The notes: generated from the letters alone by a model not told the origin. A stretch of DNA of 64,000 bases from Candidatus Latescibacterota bacterium (GCA_965206595.1 OZ242214.1:6720001-6784000), one strand, 5' to 3'; shown: positions 13,572-64,000, counted from the first letter of the stretch. Numbers and translations: made by a program.

Positions 13572-14515
13572 CTACTTGAGGCAGAGCAGCTTCCGGGACT
13601 GCACTCCATCGGGGTAGTACAGACGTATCAGGTAGACCCCTGCCGCCACCGCGGCCCCCCGCTGGTCAAGGGCGTCCCAGTGGACCTGGTAGAAGCCGGC
13701 GGCCTGGACTTGATCTATCAGCGTGCGCACAGGCTGGCCCAAGGCATTGTAGATCTCCAGCCGCACCGGGCCGGGAGTGGCCAGGCGATAGGCGATCTGA
13801 GTTGTGCTGTTGAAGGGGTTGGGGAAATTGGGCGACAGACCGCTGACGGCTGGTCCCTCCGACGCCGCCCCTTCCTTTGCCGCGTCCAGCCGTTCGACGG
13901 CAACCATCCGTACATCGCCGCCCAATGTCAGTTCCAGGATCTGGCGCCGGTTGCGGTTAAGAGGGATGCTGTTCCATTGGCTCACGATCTCGCCGGCCGG
14001 GTTGCGGGCGCGGGCGCGGTAGAAGCCGCTGACGCCGGGCGGTGCCGGGCTGGTGATGGACAGGGCCGCGCGGCCGGCCGAGTCGGTGACCGCGCTCCAT
14101 GCGTAGTCGGGTCGGCGACCGGAGATGGCGCGGGAAAACTCGACGGTCAAGCTCTCGACCGCGTCGCCCAGGATCGTGGCTTCCACTTCCGTGCGGGAAA
14201 GGGGCGTCGAATCGGGGGTAGCCACCGGTGGGGTTGTGATGTAAGGCGACATGTCCCACAGTAGAACCGTGCCGTCCCAACTCCACTGGCCAGGGTGGTC
14301 CCATCCGGCGAGAAAGCCACCGAAATGACCGCATGCGTATGCCCTTGGAAGGTGGCCTTCTCCTGCCCGCTAGCCAGCTCCCACAACACAACAGTTCTGT
14401 CGTCACTGGCACTGGCCAGGGTGGTCCCGTCCGGCGAGAAAGCCACCGACTCGACAGACGACGTATGCCCTTGTAGGGTGGCCTTCTCCTGCCCGCTGGC
14501 CACATCCCACAACCG
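13572..14515 (-). pseudogene. 3' part of split WD40 + FlgD-like gene (2 WD40 repeats, frameshift near 14282, FlgD Ig-like C-terminal domain)
   Basis: RLWDVASGQEKATLQGH repeats; GGA AGT TGG reduced to GGA GT TGG; NFPNPFNSTTQIAYRL...EIYNALGQPVRTL. Confidence 0.85.
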
Positions 14516-14777
14516 AACCGTATGGAAACCCCCCCTCATCCACTTCCCAGGAGCTTCCAACTCTCTGGGGCCATTCTTCCTGGAAGGGGAAGGCAAGGAA
14601 ACCCTGCCACAACCGCTCCCTCGATCTGGGCCGTAAACACGCGGTGGAGGGCAATCGGAAGGAGGCAGAGTCAGCCTTAGATACGAAAAGGCAGTAGTAG
14701 TCTCAATAACAACGAGGTAGTTAAAGGAGCCCATTTGGAACTACCGTACAACGTCCCTGTGCAACGGTTACCTATCA

Positions 14778-15372: not shown

Positions 15373-17342
15373 ATGGCTCTAAAGAAGCTCGGAAACAGCT
15401 ACCTCGTCGGTGCCAGCGATAGCGCACAGGCATCATTCGACGAAGACATCAATTACCGGGGGTGGAAGGATTTCCTCGTGTGGGTACCTTCGTACGACTC
15501 CGATCAGCAGGCCGTGATTACCGGGTATTCCGACAACCCGGATTCCTGGATAGATGCCTCCCTCTACCGCTGCAGCAATCTCCTGGATGATCCAGGGACG
15601 TTTGTGGACGATGAATCCGTACGATCCCTGACACGGGCAGCAGGAGGAGGGTCCATGACGTTTGAGTTCGGCCCGGAACCAGCTCGCCTTTCCGGGCTGT
15701 TCCGTCTCCGAATCAAGCCAAGAGACAATGATTCGATGTTCACGGTGAACTTTCAGAACCTTCCCTGGTATGCCCTGGAGTGCTGGGAGCCGCGCAATAA
15801 TTTCTACATATTCGGTATCTCCGGTGGCGCTCCCATCGAACAGTATTTCTTCATTCCAAGGCTGACCGAGGATGACGATTATGTTCGGGTGCGGTTGCAG
15901 ACCGGGAACAACATCGAAAACGCACGGCTCGACATATACACGGAAACCGGGGAAGATCCAATTGCTACGGCGATATGCAAAGGTATAAATGCAGCAGGTG
16001 ACGATCACCCCTGGTACGATACCGCCCGGATCGATGGAGACGACCTTCCCTCAGAGTATCCAGGAGGGATATATCGTTTCCGTCTTACGGAAGCTTTAGA
16101 TGATATCGAACAACCTTCCGGAAATACCTGGGTGCGGTTTTCCAAGAACGTAGTTCCGTACTTTTCGGGTAGTGCCGAGCGGTTGATTTATCCGATTCTC
16201 CATCAGAGGATCGATCCGGTTTCATATGTCGATGAGCCGCAGTCTCACCGGCTATACCTGACAGTTCCCCGGACCGTCCCTTCGGGAGAGACGGCTATAA
16301 TTCCCGAAGCCAGTGAACTGAAGTTGAAAACGGGAACGTCGCCGGAATCGGACACGACAACGGGCTTTTCCGTTATCACGACGCTGACCTTGGATTCACC
16401 CCAGAAGATCGAAAGAGGAGCTGATTTTGTCGCGCAACTCCTGGATGGGGATACGGTAGTCGCGGACAGCACCGACAAGGTCGATACTCTTTACGGCATT
16501 CGGGAGCCTGTATACGACAGCGACTTTCCCGAGAAGCTGATACCCGCTTGGGATAACGGGAACGGCAGATATACCTCCCAGGACATGAGTGCCGGACATA
16601 TAAACACGATACAGACGAGTGACGAAACATCCATACCGAACATTGTTGACATATAAACACGATACAGACGAGTGACGAAACATCCATACCGAACATTGTT
16701 GCAACATCCTGGGGTGCTCTGTACACACCTCCAGAGCAATGCAATCCTACAATAAAGGCTTGGTTCAAGACAGAGGTCGAAGGAGAATACCCGAATGCAA
16801 ACAGCGAGAATGTTCGCTTTTGGGCCATCCGAGACGAACCCGACAGCGGCCCTGGGTATTACCGGGCTTCTGGAAAGGTCTATCCGGTAACTGCTCTCAA
16901 GGACTTGTATGATGCGTTTCTATGCTATACGGGTTATACAAGCAAGCCCTTTCAAATCACCATCCAGCACACCATTTTCATCGAGGAATTCAGCCGAGCG
17001 TGCGACATTATTGGCAGCGATCCCTACGTCTGTGCAGTGAAGCATACCGAGAATTACAGGCGAGTGCGGGACTGCGTAGCGGAGCTGACGTACAATCAAA
17101 AGGCTCAACAAAAGCGAATGATTATCATGTGGTGGTGGGACCCGAAAGTAGGGGCGGGAACAGCCGTTGAAGTATCCCTTTTCGAAGACGCATTCGAAGA
17201 AGCAACGGGTATGGAGAGCATAGGCGGATGGAACTTTTCCGCTGGAGGGTATCCGGTGGAGAACCCGCTGAACACTGGTGATCCTGATTTATGGACGGCG
17301 ATAACAAACAAGAACAACGACTGGATCAATCCGACAGAGTAA
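15373..17342 (+). pseudogene. about 638-aa protein with glycoside hydrolase-like C-terminal part, frameshifted by a 53-bp duplication
   Basis: AAGGA SD before ATG 15373; removing one copy joins ORFs 15292-16656 and 16905-17342; FWAIRDEPD and DIIGSDPY motifs. Confidence 0.7.
16595..16700. repeat. 53-bp perfect tandem duplication
   Basis: GACATATAAACACG...CCGAACATTGTT at 16595-16647 and 16648-16700. Confidence 0.92.
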
Positions 17343-18846: not shown

Positions 18847-19205
18847 CTCGATTTATTGGTTTCATAGCCATGGCAGTCCTGGTTGCTTGCTCGGGGGACA
18901 AGGTGTTGAGCCCTCAGGCTGCTCCCAAGCGCGTCTCAAGCGGTATCATCTTCGGCAACGAAGGACTTGCGAATCCCTAATTCAGGTGTGGAGAATTGAC
19001 GCTCCCCTATGATTCTGCGGGAGCGTCGTCACTGCACTTCTACACCCTCCTTCCCGTTGAAGTGACGTGAAGCTTGACCGCTCGGGTAAGCTCGAACATG
19101 GAAACCTTGTTTCAATCCACCAGGGCGCGAAGCGCGGCATCCGTATGGATGTACGGGGCTTCCCCTTCCAGACCATTCTCGATGATGTAATCCCCCACCA
19201 GCTCG

Positions 19206-22845: not shown

Positions 22846-22850
22846 GTCCC

Positions 22851-23951
22851 AACCGTATTGTCCCAACTTCCACTGGCCAGGGTGGTCCCATCCGGCGAGA
22901 ACGCCACCGAACGGACCCAAGATGTATGCCCTCGGAGGGTGGCCTTCTCCTGCCCGCTGGCCACATCCCACAACCGAACCGTTTCGTCATAACTCACACT
23001 GGCAAGGGTGGTCCCATCCGGCGAAAACGCCACCGAAGTGAGCCCGGTCGTATGCCGGAGGGTGGCTGTCTCCTGCCCGCTAGCCACCTCCCACAACACA
23101 ACCGTGCCGTCCCGACTCCCACTGGCCAGGGTGGCCCCATCCGGCGAGAACGCCACCGAATAGACCACATATATATGCCCTTGGAGGGTGGCCGTCTCCT
23201 GCCCGCTCGCCACATCCCACAACACAACCGTGCCGTCTCGACTCCCACCACTAGCCAGGGTGGTCCCATCCGGCGAGAACGCCACCGAACGAGCCCAATC
23301 CGTATTCCCTTGGAGGGTGGCCTTCTCCTGCCCGCTGGTCACCTCCCACAACACAACCGCATAGTCCGGCCAACCTACACTACTGGCCAGAGTGGTCCCA
23401 TCCGGGGAGAACGCCACCGAAAGGACCCTCCCCGTATGCCGGAGAGTGGCCTTCTCCTGCCCGCTGGCCACATCCCACAACCGAACCGTTCTGTCCTCAC
23501 TTGAACTGGCCAGGGTGGTCCCATCCGGCGAAAACGCCACCGAAAGGACCCCATCCGTATGCGCTTGGAGGGCCGCCTTCTTCTGTCCGCTGGCCACATC
23601 CCACAGCACAACTGTGGAGTCGAAACTACCACTGGCCAGAGTGGTCCCATCCGGGGAGAACGCCACCGCACGGACAAACCTTGTATGCCCCGTGAACAAG
23701 GCGATTTCAGCACCGGTGCCAGCATTGTAGAGCCAGATACCGATGCCACTTGCCACGGCCAGCCGTATGCCATCGGGGGAATAGGCCACCGCTCGGTCCC
23801 CACCACCGATGCCGCCTTTGCCCAGACGGGCGAGGGCCCCTTCGGGCAGATTCCAGCGGGGATAGTCCTGGGCACGGCCTTCCCGCACCAACAGGACACA
23901 GGCCAACAAGAAGGCGACATTGAATATTCGGGGCTGTTTCATCTGATTCAT
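22851..23951 (-). pseudogene. 5' part of split secreted WD40-repeat gene (about 8 repeats)
   Basis: Signal peptide, WNLPEGALARLGKG, tandem VAFSPDGTTLASG repeats cut at the insertion. Confidence 0.9.
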
Positions 23952-38861: not shown

Positions 38862-38946
38862 CGCCGAATCACCCGCTAGCCATCCGCCGAATCACCTGCT
38901 AATAACCCGCCGAATCACCTGCTGATAACCCGCCGAATCACCCGTT
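38862..38946. repeat. four direct repeats with 23-bp period
   Basis: Core CGCCGAATCACC at 38862, 38885, 38908 and 38931. Confidence 0.9.
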
Positions 38947-51730: not shown

Positions 51731-56158
<4,428 letters not shown>

Positions 56159-56343
56159 TCTTGCAAGGCAACTCGTTGTGTAGCAATACGAAAAAGGGGG
56201 GATGGCGCGAACCGTATCCAACTCCTGTTGTATAGAGTCCCTTTCGCCACACCGCGGCTCAAATCTCGTTTAACTTCAATCAGTTAAGCGGTGCGCGAAC
56301 CTCCCCGTGTTTACCTGACCGCTTATGGTTCGCACCATCTTTC
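56159..56343 (-). promoter_or_regulatory. CRISPR leader
   Basis: Lower-GC segment between cas2 and the first repeat; GCGAACC...GGTTCGC inverted motif at 56295-56333. Confidence 0.8.
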
Positions 56344-56634
56344 TCAGACGATCAATGTTCCGTTCAGGTCGGCAGTTGGCTTAGCCCCAACGTGCTCTAC
56401 ACGCCTCTTCCAATTTGCACCGAGGAAATAATACCTGAGACTGTCGGTTTCTGGATTGATGATGTCCTCAAGCTGCACCTTCAGGGCGGCCCATTGCGCC
56501 GGCTCCACCTCGATCTCAAACACTGAAAACTGCACTCGTTGTCCAAAATCGCGGCACCTCTTAGCGACACGTCTTAACCGGCGTACGCCGCCATCGGATG
56601 TCGTCGAGACATCGTACGTAACGAGAACCATCAT
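56344..56634 (-). CDS. cas2: CRISPR-associated Cas2
   Basis: VLVTYDV, RRLRRVAK.C, QRVQFSVFE, DSLRYY. Confidence 0.96.
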   Translation of the reverse strand: MMVLVTYDVSTTSDGGVRRLRRVAKRCRDFGQRVQFSVFEIEVEPAQWAALKVQLEDIINPETDSLRYYFLGANWKRRVEHVGAKPTADLNGTLIV

Positions 56635-56689
56635 GGCTGTTTATTTTCCTCACGGGGCGAATATGGTTCTGAAGGGTACGCTAGTAGTC

Positions 56690-57724
56690 CTATTTCCATA
56701 ACCAAGGCGGGTGAGCGTCTAAGTCGCCTCGAAGGTGCCGAGCCAGTAACTGCGCTTGTAGGTACGCGACCAATCCGAGGGGTGCCTGTTCCCCAAGAAA
56801 AGGATGACGACGCTCTACGCGCTTTCGCTCCTGCCAAGCACTGAGAACTGTCTTGCGAGCGCCGTCGCTCATTAAGACGCTGCCGCCTTCTCGGGTTTGG
56901 AAGTCTCTGGTGCGTACTTGCCGACGATTGATTAGCGATAGCGCGAGCCGGTCAGCCAAGACTGGCCGCAGCTCTTCCATAAGATCTAGCGCGAGACTCG
57001 GACGGCCGGGCCGATCTCTATGAAAGAAGCCTACGGCCGGATCCAAGCCCACGCTTTCGGCGGCCGATCTGCAATCGTGGACGAGAAGGGTATAGAGAAA
57101 CGAGAGCAGGGCATTCATCGGGTCACGCGGCGGCCGGCGGTTGCGGCCGGCGAATGCCATCTCTGGGTCGGGTACGCGGATCAGGTGGCCAAAGACGGAG
57201 AAATAGAGCCGTGCGGCCTCGCCTTCAAAACCGCGCAGCCTATCGATACTGTCGTGGCCGTCGCTGATGCGTTGCACAATCTGCCGAAGGCGATTCGTCG
57301 CGGCGGACATGGCTTCGCGGCCAGAAGGCTCAAGCTCGTCGCCGTAATCTCGCTGCGCTCTTTGCAGGACGCTTCTCTGATTGGAGATCTTGCCGACGAG
57401 AATGCTGCGGACGATCTCTTCTGGGTCGTCGCTGGCTCTATATTGGGCGCGACGCAGCAGCACGTTGCCAGAGACCGGTCCCTCGACCCGGGCTTGGAAT
57501 CGGCCGAATCGACTCAAGAGTACAAAGACGATGCCACCGGCGGCACATGCCTGGATCAGGGATGGAGATATATAGATGCTACCAAACACCACTACGGATC
57601 CCAGCATATGGAAGGGCACCCTTATACGTTCTTCATCCTCAATTTTCGCGACCAGATTCTCGCCGTCCTTGGTCAGACGTGCTTCAGGCGTAGTAACGTA
57701 TAGCGTATTAAGCAACCGCCTCAT
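56690..57724 (-). CDS. cas1: CRISPR-associated Cas1 (I-C)
   Basis: LNTLYVT, GNVLLRRAQY, LRGFEG, RNRRPPRDP.NALLSFLY, SLALDLMEE. Confidence 0.97.
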   Translation of the reverse strand: MRRLLNTLYVTTPEARLTKDGENLVAKIEDEERIRVPFHMLGSVVVFGSIYISPSLIQACAAGGIVFVLLSRFGRFQARVEGPVSGNVLLRRAQYRASDDPEEIVRSILVGKISNQRSVLQRAQRDYGDELEPSGREAMSAATNRLRQIVQRISDGHDSIDRLRGFEGEAARLYFSVFGHLIRVPDPEMAFAGRNRRPPRDPMNALLSFLYTLLVHDCRSAAESVGLDPAVGFFHRDRPGRPSLALDLMEELRPVLADRLALSLINRRQVRTRDFQTREGGSVLMSDGARKTVLSAWQERKRVERRHPFLGEQAPLGLVAYLQAQLLARHLRGDLDAHPPWLWK

Positions 57725-58419
57725 GGGTTTTCTCCAGGCTCGGCAAGGTGCGATGCCAGGGTACGCATTCGCCATGCGAGAACCGACCGGTCCATCGCCT
57801 TCGGGCGACACTGTTCGAACAGAGAACACCCACCGCACTTGGCCGCTTCGTATTCGGCTGGGGGTGTGCGGTTTTGCGCAAAGAGTGTCGCTACCTGCAC
57901 GACTGTCGTCTCGGTCAGGGTGCGGAGCTCGGCGTCAAAAGACACTTCCTTCCGCCGTTTGGTTTGGCCGTAGTAAAAGGCCCCCATCGGCACTTCTGTA
58001 CCGGTCATTTCCTCAAGGCACAGTGCTTGGGCGCAGAGTTGCACCTCGTCGGCGCGATGCACTTTGGCCTTGCCGCGTTTGAACTCGACCGGGAACGGGG
58101 TCGGACCTGTCCGGCTTTCGCGGAACTCGACCATATCGGCGACGCCTGTAAGATTGAGCCGAAGGCTGTAGATCGGGAGCGACATTACTTGGCGCACACC
58201 TGCCCTGCGCCGACGCCCTGCTTCGTCAATGACTTGATGCAGTACTCGACCTTCAGCGGTAAACCGATTTTCCTCCCAAAGCCGTTCCAAGTGGATCAGA
58301 GCGCATTGCCTCATACAGTACACCGCATGTTGCAGTGCCGACACGGGTATCGGCTCCATTCCATGGTCCGATCCATCCCCCTCCCTAGGGGGGGACCGCC
58401 CGAACTGCGCTTCACTCAT
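57721..58419 (-). CDS. cas4: CRISPR-associated Cas4; start may be 58425, 58419 or 58359
   Basis: SALQH..YC.RQ, GVADMVE, PVEFKRG, QLCAQALCLE, C..CSL...C. Confidence 0.95.
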   Translation of the reverse strand: MSEAQFGRSPPREGDGSDHGMEPIPVSALQHAVYCMRQCALIHLERLWEENRFTAEGRVLHQVIDEAGRRRRAGVRQVMSLPIYSLRLNLTGVADMVEFRESRTGPTPFPVEFKRGKAKVHRADEVQLCAQALCLEEMTGTEVPMGAFYYGQTKRRKEVSFDAELRTLTETTVVQVATLFAQNRTPPAEYEAAKCGGCSLFEQCRPKAMDRSVLAWRMRTLASHLAEPGENP

Positions 58420-58468
58420 CGTCATCTCCGCTCCGTTTGTTTCATTCCGTGCCCCGCACAGGGGCGTC
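58366..58468 (-). CRISPR. degenerate repeat - 42 nt - degenerate repeat mini-array at the cas7/cas4 junction
   Basis: GACGCCCCTGTGCGGGGCACGGAATGAAAC (58468-58439) and GTCCCCCCCTAGGGAGGGGGATGGATCGGAC (58396-58366) both resemble the array repeat. Confidence 0.65.
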
Positions 58469-59412
58469 TATGTGATCGGCTCGACGACCTCGACATTTGC
58501 CGGCATATCGTCCAAGTCGAGCTCTACGCGATAGTCAGCAAAGCTGCGGGCAGGCGGCAGGGTGCCTTCGCTACCATCCGCTTCTGCACGCTGCACACTC
58601 ACCCGCTCAAAGAGCCTATGCGCGGGCGCGTTGCCCAAGGCACTGGCGTGCTTAAAGGCAATGAGCCGACGAGCAACCATTTCGCCGCGGGCGGCCGAGT
58701 GGTCGTGCTCGAACATCTGCGTCAAGGCATTCCAGAGGACGTCGAGATCGTCCGGCGAAAAGCCGGTGCGTTCGGCGAGCTTGGCGGAGACAAAGCCGTG
58801 CGCCCGATACAGCCCGTAGGGCACAATATGTTTGCGACCCATGGTGCGGTGCTCGGTCCGCTCGTCGCCCGCGTTTTCATCGCTGGCATCCTCGCGCTCC
58901 TGCTTTTCGTTTTCGTTGGTCGCTGCCATGCGCGTAATGGACACTTCGAGTGGCACGATCTGATCGATGGACCGCGCAAAGGTCATCTGTACCGGCCCGC
59001 GGACCTGGCCGCAGTTGATGCCGGTACTCATTACCGCACCGAAGGTGCGCACATCAAAGAAATTGTCGCACATGAAGCCGCGCAGTTTATCCATCTCCTC
59101 GTCGCTTTGAGGGCTTAGTTTCTTGCTGCTCTCGACCTTCTTGTCGTTGGGGCGCACAACCCGATACGCCTTCCGGTGTTGCTCGTTGAGCAGAGCACCT
59201 TCCTGGACGTAGATCGCGTAGCCGGACTCGTCGCCCTTAGCCAGTTCGACGAAATTGCGCACCTTGCGCTTGAGGCAGACATCCGTGACCAATCCTTGGT
59301 TCGTTTCCGGGTCGAGGCGCGGGAGGTTTCCTGCATCCGGGTCGCCGTTGGGGTTGCCGTTGTTGACGTCGAACAGATAGACGAAGTCGTAGCGATGGTT
59401 GAGTGCGGTCAT
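58468..59412 (-). CDS. cas7: Cas7/Csd2 (I-C)
   Basis: NGNPNGDPDAGNLPR, TDVCLKRKVRN, FFDVRTFGAV, GQVRGPVQ, YGLYRAHG, HDHSAARG. Confidence 0.97.
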   Translation of the reverse strand: MTALNHRYDFVYLFDVNNGNPNGDPDAGNLPRLDPETNQGLVTDVCLKRKVRNFVELAKGDESGYAIYVQEGALLNEQHRKAYRVVRPNDKKVESSKKLSPQSDEEMDKLRGFMCDNFFDVRTFGAVMSTGINCGQVRGPVQMTFARSIDQIVPLEVSITRMAATNENEKQEREDASDENAGDERTEHRTMGRKHIVPYGLYRAHGFVSAKLAERTGFSPDDLDVLWNALTQMFEHDHSAARGEMVARRLIAFKHASALGNAPAHRLFERVSVQRAEADGSEGTLPPARSFADYRVELDLDDMPANVEVVEPIT

Positions 59413-59819
59413 TCTTCGTTCTCCTTTTCTTCTTTGCCCTCCTCACTGGGGGCGGACTTGGTGTAGAAATCGTTTTTCTGGTGGTAGTAGCCGATGGCGA
59501 AGAGGGCCTGACGCTCCATCGTCAGCGTCGCCACGAACAGCTCATCGGGCGTGGCGCACCCATAGATCTGGGCGATTGCGTTGTCGATATAGCGATGAGT
59601 TGCAGGCCGGTCTTTCCGCAGACGCGACAGGTGGTTCATGGCGTTGCGTTGCAGGAGGGGAAATACAGACCGCGGCGTCGCCGAAGCCGCCCCGTAGTAC
59701 TTATCGCATATCGTGGCGTTGACCTTGCCACCGAGGGCCTGCGTTTGCGCGTACTCAAAGCAGGCAAATAGCCGGCCCAGCAAATAGCCGGGGTCGGCGT
59801 TTGTGGGATCGAGGGACAC
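59409..59819 (-). CDS. cas11: Cas11c small subunit from an internal in-frame start in cas8c
   Basis: AAGGAG SD before in-frame GTG (VSLDPTN..GYLLGRLFA); 136 aa. Confidence 0.75.
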   Translation of the reverse strand: MSLDPTNADPGYLLGRLFACFEYAQTQALGGKVNATICDKYYGAASATPRSVFPLLQRNAMNHLSRLRKDRPATHRYIDNAIAQIYGCATPDELFVATLTMERQALFAIGYYHQKNDFYTKSAPSEEGKEEKENEE

Positions 59820-61232
59820 GATAAAATTCTCCTTTGTTAAATGGTCATCCTTGCGCCTATTTCGGCAGACCACGGCTTTGAGTAAGGCTACGCGCAGGTC
59901 CGTTATGGCCTTATCCGACCGCAGTCGCATGAGAATCGTGGATAACAACGTCTGCGGATAACGGCGACCTGTCAGGATGGCGCGTAGCATATCCCCAGCG
60001 AGTTGGGGAGGGATATGTTCGTATCGGTTTTTTACCTTCGTCGTGGCGGTCTCAAGTAGGCAGCGCCGAACGCTTGGCTGCTCTTGGCGCGGCCGCGGGT
60101 CGAGGCGCATATCCCGATAGTGCCAGAGGATATGCTCGGCAAACGTCGCAAAGTCGTCCTCCAGCCAGAAGCGAATCGAAATACGCGCTGCATTGGGGGC
60201 CAATCCCAGCACGTGGAAGCGCACACCTTGGGGCAAATCCGGGCGGATTTCCTCCATGGGACGGCCCCTTGCCATTTTTTCGAGAATGGGCTTGATGGCC
60301 TGCTCGCTTGTCGCGTCGTCTGTGTCATTGGTGTCATTGAAGGCGAAGGAAAATATTGCCTCGCTTTGCGCCACTGCTTCTGCCTCCGAGCCATCGGCCC
60401 AGAATACAGTCGAGGCGTCACCGAGCTGCACTTTGTTCTCGTTGGTACGGAGAAGGTGGTTGAGCACAGTCGTATAGGCGGCGGCAGCGTCCTCGCTTAC
60501 GGGTGCATTATCGCCCTGTTTGTGCCCATAAGACTCAAAGGCGTCGAGATTGAAAGAGACGATGGATGCGCCGGAAGACTGTGCGCCACGCACCCCCTTG
60601 ATCGCGGGATGCAGCCGGGCGATAGGGGATCTCTCTCCGGTCACCAAGCAAACGGCTTTGCCCGGTTCGTGATCCTGATTCATCTGCAAGGCCCAGAGTT
60701 GACGTGCGGCCTCGCGGTCGTGTATGAAGTTGTGCTCTCCCTCCAGCCGGAACACCACATTGGCCCCCTTCATTTCGTCTGGCCAGCCACGCGCGTCGAA
60801 GTACTCTGGCTTCCACCATTGCAAGAAACGATAATAAGCCACAAGTCCTGCGTCGCTTTCGTTTTGCAGAGCAAAGTGCCTGTTCTGAAAAGCCTCGTAC
60901 TGATTCTCTACCCGCTCGGCACGCCGCTCTCTGGTGTCTGGGGTCTCGCCTTCCAAGTCTTCCATTGCACCAAGCGAATACGATGCCTTGTCCCAAAGGA
61001 AGTTCGGCACAATTTTGACCGTCCGCTTCTCTGGTCGCGGAACTGAGTGTCGCGGGGCTACGGGTTTCTTCCCTGAGTGGTCTCGTAGGTCCACAGGCGG
61101 ACCATCGGACTGGCCATCGGCCTTCAGGACGACGCAATAGTCGATCCGCTCATTGGAATAGCCAATCGGCGGCACTTTGTTCTCTGTTGCGAGCCGGTGA
61201 TAGGCCCGCTCAAGAGAAGCCAGAATGCTCAT
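59409..61232 (-). CDS. cas8c: Cas8c/Csd1
   Basis: PNFLWDK, CLVTGE, HPAIKGV, IVSFN..AFESYG, LGLAPNAARISIR, GYLLGRLFA. Confidence 0.96.
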   Translation of the reverse strand: MSILASLERAYHRLATENKVPPIGYSNERIDYCVVLKADGQSDGPPVDLRDHSGKKPVAPRHSVPRPEKRTVKIVPNFLWDKASYSLGAMEDLEGETPDTRERRAERVENQYEAFQNRHFALQNESDAGLVAYYRFLQWWKPEYFDARGWPDEMKGANVVFRLEGEHNFIHDREAARQLWALQMNQDHEPGKAVCLVTGERSPIARLHPAIKGVRGAQSSGASIVSFNLDAFESYGHKQGDNAPVSEDAAAAYTTVLNHLLRTNENKVQLGDASTVFWADGSEAEAVAQSEAIFSFAFNDTNDTDDATSEQAIKPILEKMARGRPMEEIRPDLPQGVRFHVLGLAPNAARISIRFWLEDDFATFAEHILWHYRDMRLDPRPRQEQPSVRRCLLETATTKVKNRYEHIPPQLAGDMLRAILTGRRYPQTLLSTILMRLRSDKAITDLRVALLKAVVCRNRRKDDHLTKENFIVSLDPTNADPGYLLGRLFACFEYAQTQALGGKVNATICDKYYGAASATPRSVFPLLQRNAMNHLSRLRKDRPATHRYIDNAIAQIYGCATPDELFVATLTMERQALFAIGYYHQKNDFYTKSAPSEEGKEEKENEE

Positions 61233-61891
61233 CGCAGTACCTCCGGCGAATTGGGTGAAGGAATTTCGACAACCCCCTGTTTCATTTCGGCGCGAAAGAA
61301 AAGCGGCTGTCGCTCGTTTTCGTGGTCAATATCGTAGAGCATCCAGCCCAAGTCACGGCTTTCATCAATCGCTGGCGGTAGGTCGTCTTCGTGCTCAATG
61401 AGTGTGTAGTCTGCAGCAAATTCTCGCGTTCCAAGACAGGGCTGGTGAAAGCACTGCCCGTTCCTAGCGCGGCGATTGAAGATGTCGAGGTGTTTGCCCA
61501 CGTTATCGCTTTCGCCCGCTTCGTCCGTCATGTCAAAGTGCGCTTCAATGGCGTACTCAACGTTGACCAAGACGGTTGCGGCGCGTTGCTGGCGATCATC
61601 CTCAACTTTGGTGTAGAGGGTCTCAATGGAGCCCCTGTTTTTCGCCGTGCGGACAGACCCCATGGGAATTTTCTTGCCGACTTCGTTGCGCCGGATCGAC
61701 TGGAACCGAATCGGCTTGAGAACGTGAAGGCGGTCAATGCGCCAGACGATGTCCGGCTTCCAGTGAATGGCCTCCAAGATGCCGCGTGCCGCCGAAGGCG
61801 TCATTACGTCGTAGGATACGCGCTCGACTTTCATTTCCGGCCGAGTGAAACAGGCGTATTCGCCTCCCACGCGCAGACGTATTCCGAACAT
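61229..61891 (-). CDS. cas5: Cas5d (I-C crRNA processing endoribonuclease)
   Basis: ACFTRPEMKVERVSY.V.TPSAARGILEAIHWKP, IRRNEV, PCLGTREF. Confidence 0.97.
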   Translation of the reverse strand: MFGIRLRVGGEYACFTRPEMKVERVSYDVMTPSAARGILEAIHWKPDIVWRIDRLHVLKPIRFQSIRRNEVGKKIPMGSVRTAKNRGSIETLYTKVEDDRQQRAATVLVNVEYAIEAHFDMTDEAGESDNVGKHLDIFNRRARNGQCFHQPCLGTREFAADYTLIEHEDDLPPAIDESRDLGWMLYDIDHENERQPLFFRAEMKQGVVEIPSPNSPEVLR

Positions 61892-61921
61892 GGACGAACT
61901 CCTTTTCTGTGGTATTGTGGT

Positions 61922-61949
61922 ATTTCAATACCCTCCGCACGGGGGGCAC
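61922..61949 (-). repeat. solitary degenerate CRISPR repeat between cas3 and cas5
   Basis: GTGCCCCCCGTGCGGAGGGTATTGAAAT versus the array repeat; hairpin and TTGAAA tail retained. Confidence 0.75.
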
Positions 61950-61957
61950 CCCTACCA

Positions 61958-64000
61958 TTATATTAGCATCACCTCATCGCCGAGCGCATCCGCGTCCTCC
62001 CAAAGGAGGCCGACATCTTCTTGATAGAGGCTTTGAGTGAAGAGAACGGCGAACTGGTCACCGAAGCGTTCCTGTGCCTCAAAATAAACGTGATTATTTT
62101 TTACAAGTTGTTCTCGGAAGCGAGGATAAACTTGCACAATATAAGGTTGGAGCCGTCGCGCCACCCCGCCAACTCGTTCAACATATGCGAGATCACGCAT
62201 GGCCTTACGCGCTTCCTCTTCTCGGGCGACGATCACCGGCTCAAGTCCACTCTGAATCAGGCGAAACGTCTCGCCAACTTCGCGGAAGGAGAACGAAGTG
62301 CCGTGCTTACTCATCTTGAACTTTTGCAAGAAGTCATCGCCAAGCCCCTCTCCTTTGCGCCAGTACACCTCTTGGAAGTAGTCTTCCATAGCCTCTGGCG
62401 ACAGCAGGTCGTCGTGGCGACCCATGATGCGCTCCATATCTCCGGCAAGCTGGCGCAGTTCAGGCGGACTTTGATGTTCCTCGGATTGGAACGCGGTGAC
62501 AATGCTGTTTGCAACATCTCGTCGACCCTCCCTATTACACCGCCCAGCAGCTTGGGCAATCGAATCAAGCCCTGCCTCGGCCCGCCAAACCCTCGGAAAA
62601 TCCAAATCAACGCCTGCCTCAACCAGCGAGGTAGCAATCAATCGGCACGGCTTGCCTGCCTTTAACCGCTGGCGCACATCCGCAAGGATGCGGCGGCGAT
62701 GCACTGCGTATTGCCGCGTACTCAGATGCACGACGCCCTCAATGTCTGCTTCACGGGCTTGCCGAAAGAGGTCCAAGGCATGTTTCCGACTGTTGACAAT
62801 AACCATGCCTTGCACCGTTTGCGTGAGAGCGGCGCATAGGCTCTCGTCGCTTAGTACGCCCTCGTGGGCGATGGTGACGCGGGCAAGCCTCTGGTGCAAG
62901 CGCGGCGGGTCAGGTGCGAGTTCGCGGACTTGGTCAAAGCCCCCTTCGAAATCAGGTGCCTTGAGTGCCGGTTGGGTCGCGGTGCATAATACTATTGAAG
63001 AACCATAGTTACGAGCTAGTTCATCAAGAACAGCAACCGAAGGCCGTAGTACATGTAGGGGGATAGTCTGCGCTTCGTCGAGGACAATGACCGCACGAGC
63101 CAAATTATGCAGCTTGCGGCACCGCGACGGCCGATGAGAAAACAGGCTCTCAAAGAGCTGGACGTTGGTGGTCGCGACGATGGGGGCCGCCCAGTCCTCC
63201 ATGGCGAGCCGCAGTTTATCGGCTCCCTCCCGATTTGTGGACTTACTTTCGTCAATAGACGAATGATGTTCTAGGACGACGCCCTCACCCAGCACATCGC
63301 GGAAAATCGCTGCGGTCTGGTCAATCACTGAAGTAAAGGGAATAGCATAGATGATGCGCTCAAGCCCGTGTGCTTTGGCATGGTCGAGAGCAAAGGCGAG
63401 GGAAGTCAGCGTTTTGCCGCCGCCGGTCGGTACATTGAGCGAGAACAGGCCCGGAGAGTAATGGGCTTGAGCCCGAACATGCTTCAGAATTTCGCGGCGT
63501 AGGTGATTGACCTTCCCTTTGCTATCAAATCCTGCGAGGTGATCATTGAGCCTATCGCGTAGCGGATCAACTATTTCTGGGAGCGTCGGCCAGTCGCGGT
63601 CAACGGCCTCGCCTTTTGCATCAGCGTAAAAGCCCTCGGTGTCGCGGAAGTCTGCGTCAACGAGGCACGAGAAGATCATCCGTGTCAAAAAGGAGAGCTG
63701 AAACACCGTCGTCTCACGGTCTTTCCCTAATGTGAACCCTTCGGGCCAAAGACCAGTAGCATCTGGCCGAATTTCCAGATCCCAAGTCGAGTCAAGCGGG
63801 TCGAGTGTCTTTTTTAGCCGCTCGTCAAGCGAATTGAGTGAACCGGTCCCGCTTTGCATATCCGGCAGGCCAGCGTGGTGCCCGGCGATGGCATAAGCGA
63901 TGAGTTGCGCCATTGCCCGATCCATATCTGTTTCTACCACGGTGTTGACAATTTTTGCGCCAGCGGTCGCGTGATCCACCGCTGGGCCGCCGTGCAGGCG
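61958..64000 (-). CDS. cas3: Cas3 HD nuclease-helicase, 5' end outside window
   Basis: IAGHHAGL, LVDAD, PTGGGKT, LDEAQ, CTATQP, EAGVDLD, QAAGRCNR. Confidence 0.97.
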   Translation of the reverse strand, partial: RLHGGPAVDHATAGAKIVNTVVETDMDRAMAQLIAYAIAGHHAGLPDMQSGTGSLNSLDERLKKTLDPLDSTWDLEIRPDATGLWPEGFTLGKDRETTVFQLSFLTRMIFSCLVDADFRDTEGFYADAKGEAVDRDWPTLPEIVDPLRDRLNDHLAGFDSKGKVNHLRREILKHVRAQAHYSPGLFSLNVPTGGGKTLTSLAFALDHAKAHGLERIIYAIPFTSVIDQTAAIFRDVLGEGVVLEHHSSIDESKSTNREGADKLRLAMEDWAAPIVATTNVQLFESLFSHRPSRCRKLHNLARAVIVLDEAQTIPLHVLRPSVAVLDELARNYGSSIVLCTATQPALKAPDFEGGFDQVRELAPDPPRLHQRLARVTIAHEGVLSDESLCAALTQTVQGMVIVNSRKHALDLFRQAREADIEGVVHLSTRQYAVHRRRILADVRQRLKAGKPCRLIATSLVEAGVDLDFPRVWRAEAGLDSIAQAAGRCNREGRRDVANSIVTAFQSEEHQSPPELRQLAGDMERIMGRHDDLLSPEAMEDYFQEVYWRKGEGLGDDFLQKFKMSKHGTSFSFREVGETFRLIQSGLEPVIVAREEEARKAMRDLAYVERVGGVARRLQPYIVQVYPRFREQLVKNNHVYFEAQERFGDQFAVLFTQSLYQEDVGLLWEDADALGDEVMLI

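Follow-up and report, generated by a model that had tools for sequence, protein, structure and literature searches.

Solitary repeats in cas operons

The subject here is a type I-C cas operon whose intergenic junctions carry short sequences resembling the repeat of its own CRISPR array. It lies in a stretch of 64,000 nucleotides (nt) from Candidatus Latescibacterota bacterium (GCA_965206595.1 OZ242214.1:6720001-6784000), the whole of which is called the window. The closest described elements are solitary repeat units situated directly before cas5c in type I-C loci. These yield RNAs of 48-50 nt that carry an 11-nt handle cut by Cas5c and have their 3' end within a hairpin loop. Their targets are promoter sites flanked by TTC or TTA (10.1101/2024.12.27.630466, available part). 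Repeat-like sequences are reported for 34% and mini-arrays for 7% of 1206 I-C loci (PMC10120712 Table 1). The available part of another report (10.1101/2023.03.10.532045) notes creA-like elements for I-C and shows CreR experimentally for types I-B, I-E and V-A; I-C is only mentioned there.

CreR/CreA and the regulatory mini-arrays (PMC10120712, in the sections available) are likewise repeat-derived and lie inside cas operons. They display partial, seed-weighted complementarity to a cas promoter, where Cascade binds without cleavage, and sixth-position mismatches are tolerated, as in three sister loci described below (L004-L006). Repeat-derived regulatory RNAs are a common route by which CRISPR-Cas systems sense their own load and control neighbouring genes. 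RacrIC1, as presented in the available part of PMC10651486, is like the window elements a lone I-C repeat copy in a polycistronic mRNA without a spacer target, and it engages Cas proteins. However, Racrs are encoded by phages or plasmids and inhibit the host system, whereas the window elements are chromosomal, lie inside the cas operon and are far more degenerate. A phage or plasmid solitary repeat, often beside acr genes, is thus not what is found between these chromosomal cas genes. In the I-C dev operon of Myxococcus xanthus the Cascade subcomplex DevTRS (Cas8c-Cas7-Cas5) represses its own operon; the passages available from the review (PMC8616872) call the mechanism unknown.

The repeat-like elements of the window

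The operon occupies the right end of the window on the minus strand in the order cas3-cas5d-cas8c-cas7-cas4-cas1-cas2-leader-array. The array repeat in the sense of the CRISPR RNA (crRNA) is 32 nt long, GTCGCCCCCCGCGCGGGGGCGTGGATTGAAAC, with a 7-bp stem, a 5-nt loop and an 11-nt handle. This is the Cas5c substrate geometry as given in the available part of PMC8524198. The original prediction, made from the sequence, stated that only three junctions of the operon are not gene overlaps and that each carries a repeat-like element on the sense strand at or just before the downstream ribosome-binding site (RBS), the third of them weak. The junctions are as stated: cas3/cas5 (66 nt), cas7/cas4 (42 nt) and cas1/cas2 (55 nt). 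Elements A and B are present at the first two, but the cas1/cas2 element has no hairpin, the 3' stem arm being missing. Both clear elements flank the Cascade module cas5-cas8c-cas7, each just upstream of the next RBS, again as stated. The elements and the stretches next to them are:

61950-61922, minus strand, sense: mimic A (psiR-A), reads GGTGCCCCCCGTGCGGAGGGTATTGAAAT, upstream of the cas5 RBS
61892..61929, minus strand: conserved block of the cas5 5' untranslated region (UTR), consisting of ATTGAAAT, ACCACAATACCACAG and the AAAGGAG RBS
58466-58439, minus strand, sense: mimic B (psiR-B), reads CGCCCCTGTGCGGGGCACGGAATGAAAC
58396-58365, minus strand: repeat-like stretch in cas4 codons 11-21, 21/32 identity to the repeat in an ungapped scan
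56660-56639, minus strand: cas1/cas2 relic, reads TCGCCCCGTGAGGAAAATAAAC, the 5' half of the repeat and an A-rich tail

The two mimics, together with the stub at cas1/cas2, are probably decayed solitary repeat units, A being the remnant of a CreR/crlRNA-type autoregulator, and their present effect would be that of ordinary RNA structure and 5' UTR context. The kind of element is known, and the position before cas5c is canonical for I-C. Mimic A is like the I-C solitary repeat units (10.1101/2024.12.27.630466, available part) in position (after cas3 and last before cas5c), in strand and in having a hairpin with a handle. It differs from them in lacking a convincing target as well as a pseudo-spacer, a promoter and a 3' hairpin, and in a handle shorter by 3 nt. 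When set against CreR/CreA as the available text has them, the window elements lack the target and the second repeat. There is also no toxin gene beside a mini-CRISPR as in CreTA, the junctions of 66, 42 and 55 nt leaving no room for a second gene. The kinship with CreTA/CreR-type RNAs was correctly placed in the original prediction. The intact elements of sister loci show the CreR/crlRNA architecture.

Three features are new here, although the supplements of the cited papers may cover some of this. These are the occurrence within one Latescibacterota clade of a self-targeting element in three states (intact, target-less and stub), the sense repeat copies at cas7/cas4 and cas1/cas2 without DNA targets, and an in-register likeness between the oldest array unit and the cas3 end with mimic A. 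The series of states in one clade of a poorly studied phylum runs from intact and self-repressing (L004-L006) through target lost (L002) to stub (window). This family of loci is useful for I-C annotation and for the study of how such regulators arise and decay, and it raises the question of a cis role of lone repeats inside cas mRNAs. The claim for the window itself is modest: the elements are real but degenerate, and the evidence gives no sign that they act as the circuit that had been proposed.

Intact elements in sister loci

A search with Cas7 gave nine Latescibacterota loci (L001-L009, 83-99% identity), the sister loci, and 71 others, mostly alphaproteobacterial. A metagenome search with Cas5d added 80 more distant loci of at most 68% identity; there were no close relatives and no extra short-form junctions among them. 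A covariance model was built from 48 distinct I-C repeats, in which positions 3-9 pair with 15-21 and covary while the pentaloop and the 11-nt tail remain. The scan of sister operon parts with this model covered three loci (L004, L005 and L007) and gave four copies:

L005, cas3/cas5: sense, full-length repeat copy, 33 bits, E 1e-8
L004, cas1/cas2: sense, full-length repeat copy, 30 bits, E 1e-7
L004, cas3/cas5: sense, full-length repeat copy, 28.8 bits, E 2.4e-7
L007, cas7/cas4: sense, full-length repeat copy, 16.1 bits, E 0.003

Recurrence at the same junctions of related I-C loci had been expected and is borne out by these copies, but the hairpins of A and B are lost in some sisters. In junction alignments the window elements fall at positions homologous to the sister copies. 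Since full-length sense copies occupy the same junctions in the sister loci, the window elements very probably have a repeat ancestry.

A complete crRNA-like regulatory gene is present at cas3/cas5 in L004, L005 and L006. The gap there measures about 190 nt. Along it come, in this order, the repeat copy, a 28-nt pseudo-spacer, a terminator hairpin, a TTGACA box and a TTC-flanked target. The first 15 nt of the pseudo-spacer are conserved ([TC]ACATGTATTACGTA) and the remainder is variable. The terminator hairpin, called as such in 3/3 loci, is 13-15 bp long, starts with GTCGCC and ends with a T-run. The target, TTC followed by [TC]ATAT[AG]TATTAAGTA, comes after the TTGACA box. It is the sole TTC-flanked site in each 17-kb locus that matches the pseudo-spacer at 11/16 or better, and lies 92-94 nt downstream of it on the same strand. 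At non-sixth positions the matches are 13/15 (L004), 13/15 (L005) and 12/15 (L006), with 0/200 shuffles as good. Read by eye, pseudo-spacer and target disagree at positions 3, 6 and 12 and covary at position 1 (T/T in L004, C/C in L005 and L006). In L004 and L006 a TTGACA-16-TATATT promoter is called, with a -10 box that overlaps the target. L005 has no called promoter, and its target adjoins a TTGACA. The predicted RNA is about 49 nt long, from an 11-nt handle, the 28-nt pseudo-spacer and half a stem.

L004-L006 thus resemble the I-C solitary repeat units (10.1101/2024.12.27.630466, available part) in the 28-nt pseudo-spacer, the 3' hairpin, an RNA of about 49 versus 48-50 nt, the TTC protospacer-adjacent motif (PAM) and the promoter match. 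The published units regulate cargo defence genes between cas3 and cas5c, whereas those of L004-L006 target the cas5 promoter region itself. The original prediction had proposed that the junction elements may be cis sites; the intact cas3/cas5 element of L004-L006 appears instead to be a trans-acting, DNA-targeting crRNA-like gene with terminator and promoter target.

A promoter-like TCGACA-17-TAAAAT is situated within the last cas3 codons of L004 (L004:5373-5401) and L006 (L006:5315-5343), just upstream of the repeat copy, and would give the regulatory RNA of these loci its own start. The window counterpart reads TCGGCG, 15 nt, TATAAT; it is not called as a promoter and is degraded. L002 retains the repeat, pseudo-spacer and hairpin, and has lost the -10 box and target. 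The cas3 gene of L002 is split by an insertion of about 2 kb (L002:2330-4170), apparently encoding a transposase.

The following course of events is proposed. Old I-C repeat copies would have lodged in sense orientation where the three module boundaries of the operon lie. In sister loci, Cas5d would cut the regulatory transcript at the base of the repeat hairpin, and Cascade loaded with the product would sit on the TTC-flanked partial match at the cas5 promoter region (L004-L006) and thereby repress cas5-cas8c-cas7, as CreR/crlRNA-type autorepression. The short form in the window lineage has no terminator, promoter or target, retains no more than the first few bases of the pseudo-spacer, and has lost 3 nt of the handle. 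The window element would then no longer guide Cascade to DNA, and cas5-cas8c-cas7 would be read through from cas3. What is left would be a drifting, still pairable hairpin A with a selectively conserved cas5 5' UTR, and a 5-bp hairpin after the cas7 stop. The likeliest present role of the A and B hairpins would be in intercistronic RNA structure and translation-initiation context, not as guides. We infer both the repression in sister loci and the loss of guide function in the window.

Mimic A and the cas3/cas5 junction

The stem of mimic A is GCCCCCC/GGAGGGT with one C.A mismatch, the loop is GTGC, and ATTGAAAT follows directly after the stem. Its tail is 8-9 nt long, compared with the 11-nt handle of the repeat, the three bases between stem and AUUGAAAC being missing, and ends 31 nt ahead of the cas5 start codon. 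Over the block from ATTGAAAT to the RBS, identity counted from the alignment is 33/38 with L008 and 34/38 with L009. Pairing in the hairpin varies: the window has the C.A mismatch, L001 a compensating U-A and L008 a different stem, UUCCC/GGGAA, while the hairpin is absent in L009 and weak in L007. The short form of the junction is shared by the window, L001, L003, L007, L008 and L009 and consists of hairpin, ATTGAAA[TC], ACCAYAATACCACAG and RBS. In the alignment it equals the long form minus the part from the early pseudo-spacer to just before the RBS.

Similarity to the array extends beyond the repeat. The oldest spacer and terminal repeat (51834-51766) match the cas3 end and mimic A in register, 16/23 and 22/37, compared with at most 11/23 for the other 65 array units. 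The similarity spans 51766-51834 versus 61928-61987 of the window, minus strand, and the oldest spacer reads ATGCG...AATGGTCGG. This suggests a recombination between, or a common origin of, the array end and the cas3/cas5 junction. No counterpart of the oldest spacer was found in the retrieved parts of L001-L009.

RNA folding of the window shows no 3' hairpin or second repeat after mimic A. A long-range pairing of the 5' arm of mimic A with cas5 codons 5-12 (z -2.26) was considered and set aside: the partner is conserved coding sequence and the arm of L008 differs. The sequencing data covered four runs, all in the form of assembled contigs. In RNA-library run X19, a contig from an 89%-identical relative ends at 61926, within the mimic A tail, and another contig runs unbroken over mimic B (58411-58969). 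X19 is one study, and its assembled contigs cannot show RNA ends or prove transcription.

Possible resemblance by chance

A repeat likeness could arise by chance in a genome of 64% GC, the junctions simply carrying generic GC-rich intercistronic hairpins with no repeat ancestry. Scores of the window elements agree with this. The covariance model, run without filters on 56200-64000, gives mimic B 9.4 bits (E 0.41, sense strand) and mimic A 7.1 bits (E 2.2, antisense (+) strand), in both cases for the hairpin part only. The remaining 51.6 kb of the window yields 15.2, 13.5, 10.7 and 10.2 bits. Under this model the window elements thus do no better than GC-matched hairpins, an outcome that the original prediction had named as speaking against it. 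Covariance-model and hidden Markov model scans show no significant full-length repeat match at the window junctions, and among sense-strand nhmmer matches of 4 bits and above neither mimic appears. Ungapped matches to the repeat of at least 19/32 are common, about 1250 per strand genome-wide, and the fold z-scores of the mimic B and cas1/cas2 regions are about 0.

A composite rule points the other way. It was set after the elements had been seen and consists of a GC hairpin of at least 5 bp with a loop of 4-6 and at most one mismatch, 0-5 nt before A[AT]TGAAA[CT]. Outside the array, 2 x 7.05 Mb (14.1 Mb) hold 65 instances. At least 13 of these, belonging to a score class of 19, fall in a second CRISPR array. 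In the 64-kb window the sole matches are mimics A and B, both on the sense strand and within about 160 nt of junction. Secure repeat copies stand at the same junctions of sister loci, and the in-register similarity reaches into the flank of an array unit. The generic-hairpin explanation is already disfavoured on these grounds and is quite improbable.

Two further repeat-like features of the window lie close together (region 19000-19140). At 19120-19109, minus strand, there is an exact 12-nt repeat tail, GTGGATTGAAAC (13.5 bits), with a GCGC hairpin ahead. A second hairpin, GACGCTCCC...GGGGAGCGTC (10.7 bits), which resembles the repeat, comes about 82 nt downstream. The 12-nt tail may be no more than the end of a minus-strand open reading frame (...ALVD*).

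Possible guide function in the window

Targets for pseudo-spacers A and B and for the cas1/cas2 flank were searched for in 25 kb, in 22 kb and in the whole genome. The sole target found is an 11/15 site for pseudo-spacer A upstream of cas3, the genome-wide part of this statement applying to the matches listed. Pseudo-spacer B has no target match in 25 kb, in 22 kb or among the genome-wide matches listed. In the genome-wide scan, which had no PAM filter, 12-14/15 matches with other flanks are common among the matches listed, and for pseudo-spacer A the only TTC-flanked site of at least 12/15 among them is at genome position 2678440.

Other parts of a guide gene were compared between the window and its sister loci. 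A repeat with full handle gives 28.8-33 bits over its full length in the sisters versus 9.4 and 7.1 bits for partial hairpins in the window. A PAM-flanked, seed-weighted promoter match is found in L004, L005 and L006 and not in the window. A 3' hairpin or second repeat one spacer length on is likewise found in L004-L006; in the window nothing follows A, and cas4 coding sequence follows B. Promoter calling yields nothing for the operon strand in 56000-64000, and nothing in 800 nt spanning the cas3 start. With no 3' hairpin, no promoter, a weak A target and no B match, a DNA-guiding function is not supported in the window.

Mimic A could still be a working guide if RNA from its handle directed Cascade to TTC followed by ACCATCATCACGCTGAAC and so repressed the whole operon. 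The site is the best TTC-flanked match in 22 kb, with 2/100 shuffles as good (p ~0.02), and lies just upstream of cas3. However, it is mismatched at positions 5, 9, 10 and 14, which reach into the seed, and it has no counterpart in L001, L003 and L007-L009 (p 0.5-1.0). The shortened handle, the absence of a called promoter upstream of cas3 and of a 3' hairpin or second repeat to end the RNA, and the frequency of 12-14/15 matches with other flanks among the genome-wide matches listed also speak against a guide, and this function is very improbable.

Proposed cleavage and docking in cis

The original prediction proposed that the elements may let Cas5d or Cascade cut the polycistron into cas3, Cascade and adaptation parts and occlude the downstream RBS, giving post-transcriptional feedback. 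Spelled out, Cas5d would recognise hairpin and handle in the polycistronic cas mRNA and cut where the hairpin ends at its base. It would then stay on the handle and Cas7 would coat the next ~30 nt, hiding the RBS or start of cas5 and cas4; the starts of cas8c and cas7 would be hidden through 4-nt overlaps, so that free Cascade subunits throttle their own translation. Several observations fit such a self-processing circuit. The elements are all in sense, with tails ending 13 nt (B) and 31 nt (A) before the start codon and 12 nt before it in the L004 cas1/cas2 copy, and target-less sense copies occur at cas7/cas4 and cas1/cas2 of other loci. The stems tolerate only changes that keep sense-strand pairing, G.U included, and the ATTGAAAT block is under purifying selection. 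By open reading frame coordinates, cas8c shares 4 nt with cas5d and 4 nt with cas7. The window Cas5d retains the HWK and KH motifs, as in solved Cas5d proteins (PDB 3vzi, 7kha; E ~1e-85), and the available account of RacrIC1 (PMC10651486) has a lone I-C repeat active in a bicistronic mRNA.

Compared with a Cas5d substrate, on the other hand, the elements are altered. Mimic A has one stem mismatch with AUUGAAAU directly 3' of the stem, UGG being missing after the cut site, and its tail is of 8-9 nt. In mimic B the stem has 5 bp and is followed by ACGGAAUGAAAC, the first handle position being C instead of U. Cas5c enzymes are reported to recognise both the cut site and the handle behind it; BhaCas5c hardly cuts a U22G substrate, and tolerance differs from enzyme to enzyme (PMC8524198, available part). 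Covariance-model scores are at background, the minimum-free-energy fold of the mimic A region does not form the local hairpin, and the cas1/cas2 element has none. The A hairpin is missing from L009 and the B hairpin from L004, L008 and L009, in operons that look intact and keep the conserved UTR. In three other I-C loci (L159, L020 and L076) the target-less copies lie ~55-110 nt from the cas4 start, a distance too great for occlusion. One of the expected cut sites, 58376, is not at a junction at all and falls in the cas4 coding stretch 58396-58365. The circuit is therefore unlikely in the window.

A clade-wide form of the same idea is likewise unlikely. In it, Cas5d and Cascade subunits would dock and cut in cis at repeat copies on the module boundaries, and free subunits would mask the RBS of cas4, of cas2 and of cas5, to which cas8c and cas7 would be coupled in translation. 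If true, such docking would be a post-transcriptional counterpart of CreR autorepression for which a DNA target is unnecessary. Three observations would be accounted for: stem changes that preserve pairing, selection acting on the ATTGAAAT-UTR block, and sense copies without a target beside start codons (those of the window, A and B, with L004 cas1/cas2 and L007 cas7/cas4).

Survey of I-C loci

Solitary repeat-like matches of at least 9 bits were collected from 161 loci, with the following result by junction:

cas3/cas5: 22 sense, 4 antisense, in 141 junctions
cas7/cas4: 6 sense, 2 antisense, in 113 junctions, one sense match being the coding stretch in L002
cas5/cas8: 1 sense, 1 antisense, in 147 junctions
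cas1/cas2: 1 sense, 0 antisense, in 102 junctions

Just 2 such matches fall within cas genes. Units reaching the handle end were tested for a TTC-flanked match within 1.5 kb at p <= 0.01. A target is found for 10/18 sense and 2/4 antisense cas3/cas5 units, for 0/5 sense cas7/cas4 units and for 0/1 cas1/cas2 units, and an any-PAM search of whole loci does no better for the cas7/cas4 and cas1/cas2 units. Among the cas7/cas4 sense copies without a detectable DNA target are those at L159:5300-5400, L020:5370-5400 and L076:8960-8990, ~55-110 nt from the cas4 start; L159 has two copies with a 21-nt spacer.

Several of these results weigh against decayed repeat units as the full explanation. Identity over the block from ATTGAAAT to the RBS, at 33-34/38, is far above that of four-fold degenerate sites (0.55-0.62). 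A pure relic would not predict this conservation, though ordinary 5' UTR constraint explains it. The short cas3/cas5 form is also present in the most distant sisters (L007-L009), so it may be old and not a recent product of decay. The stems still pair by way of C-to-U wobble and two-sided changes (A: window, L001, L008; B: window, L001, L002, L005, L006), which hints at selection on a sense-strand RNA structure, although for B 66/500 shuffles are equal and there are 6 sequences. The best TTC-flanked match of pseudo-spacer A in 22 kb does reach 11/15 non-sixth positions 68 nt upstream of the cas3 start. Finally, well-preserved sense copies at cas7/cas4 (L007, L159, L020, L076) and cas1/cas2 (L004) have no DNA target (p 0.3-0.96), and DNA targeting therefore cannot explain all junction repeats. 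With these points taken into account, decayed solitary repeat units remain the probable identity of the window elements.

Mimic B, cas4 and the cas1/cas2 relic

Mimic B starts two bases past the cas7 stop. Its stem is GCCCC/GGGGC, 5 bp (58465-58461 with 58455-58451), the loop is TGTGC and the tail is ACGGAATGAAAC, the end of which lies 4 nt ahead of the cas4 RBS and 13 nt ahead of the ATG at 58425. Over six loci, pairing holds in 26/30 pair cells, and 3 pairs show changes on both sides; 66/500 shuffles do as well. The hairpin is deleted in L004, L008 and L009.

The repeat-like stretch at 58396-58365 is part of a translated, clade-specific N-terminal extension of Cas4 of about 22 residues. In ten aligned Latescibacterota loci its indels are multiples of three (3n) that keep the frame, the peptide FGRSPP is kept despite CGG/AGA/CGA swaps of the Arg codon, and L008 and L009 have no internal ATG in the stretch, all of which point to translation. 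The extension (58360-58425, MTMSEAQFGRSPP...) is absent from alphaproteobacterial homologues. Its DNA is repeat-like in the closest relatives of the window, up to 10.4 bits (L002). A mini-array formed by mimic B, 42 nt and 58396-58365 as repeat, spacer and repeat was rejected, the 'spacer' and second element being the translated Cas4 N-terminus.

The cas1/cas2 relic has no 3' stem arm, and its fold shows no repeat-like hairpin. The L004 copy (30 bits) at the same junction ends 12 nt before the cas2 ATG.

Genes, array and other repeats

The type I-C (Dvulg) gene set is complete in Pfam searches (cas3, cas5d, cas8c, cas7, cas4, cas1, cas2) with no cas6, and the repeat agrees with type I-C in its 32 nt, 7-bp stem, pentaloop and 11-nt 3' tail with a GAAAC end. 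The rows of the locus, all genes and the array on the minus strand, are:

61958..64000, past the window end: cas3 (Pfam Cas3-like_C_2, DEAD, ResIII); its ATG is genome position 6784180, ~180 nt outside the window end
61229..61891: cas5d (Cas5c), crRNA endonuclease (Pfam Cas_Cas5d, E 1.4e-45)
59409..61232: cas8c (Csd1; Pfam Cas_Csd1, E 1.6e-175)
58468..59412: cas7 (Csd2; Pfam Cas_Cas7, E 1.3e-105)
57721..58425: cas4 (Pfam Cas_Cas4), with the clade-specific 22-aa (amino acid) N-terminal extension
56690..57838: cas1 (Pfam Cas_Cas1, E 1.2e-102)
56344..56634: cas2 (Pfam CRISPR_Cas2)
56159-56343: leader, ~185 nt
51731..56158: CRISPR array, ~66 units, from repeat finding

The array shows several irregularities, in the regions 51731-51797, 55873-55985 and 56048-56126. 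A 29-nt insert splits the terminal repeat, the 5' part of which is a perfect 24-nt palindrome. Three repeats are spaced by a mere 7 and 10 nt. The leader-proximal 'spacer' is 79 nt long and holds a second copy of the 11-nt handle, TGGATTGAAAC. There are two exact (100% identical) internal duplications, 52033-52263 = 52840-53070 (231 nt) and 53375-53443 = 53444-53512 (69 nt).

The second CRISPR array of the genome, at ~2,114,590-2,115,656, has 16 copies of a 37-nt repeat, ATCTCCCCTCGCTTCGGTGAGGGGAGCGGATTGAAAC, and a lone copy of this repeat is found 2.4 kb off at 2,118,040. Repeats unrelated to CRISPR are also present in the window. Families with a period of ~126 nt occur at two places 8.5 kb apart (14261-14595 and 22848-23747 among the listed regions), and the window also has a 53-nt sequence duplicated exactly in tandem and a 23-nt unit present three times in tandem, for which the listed regions include 16595-16700 and 38862-38942.

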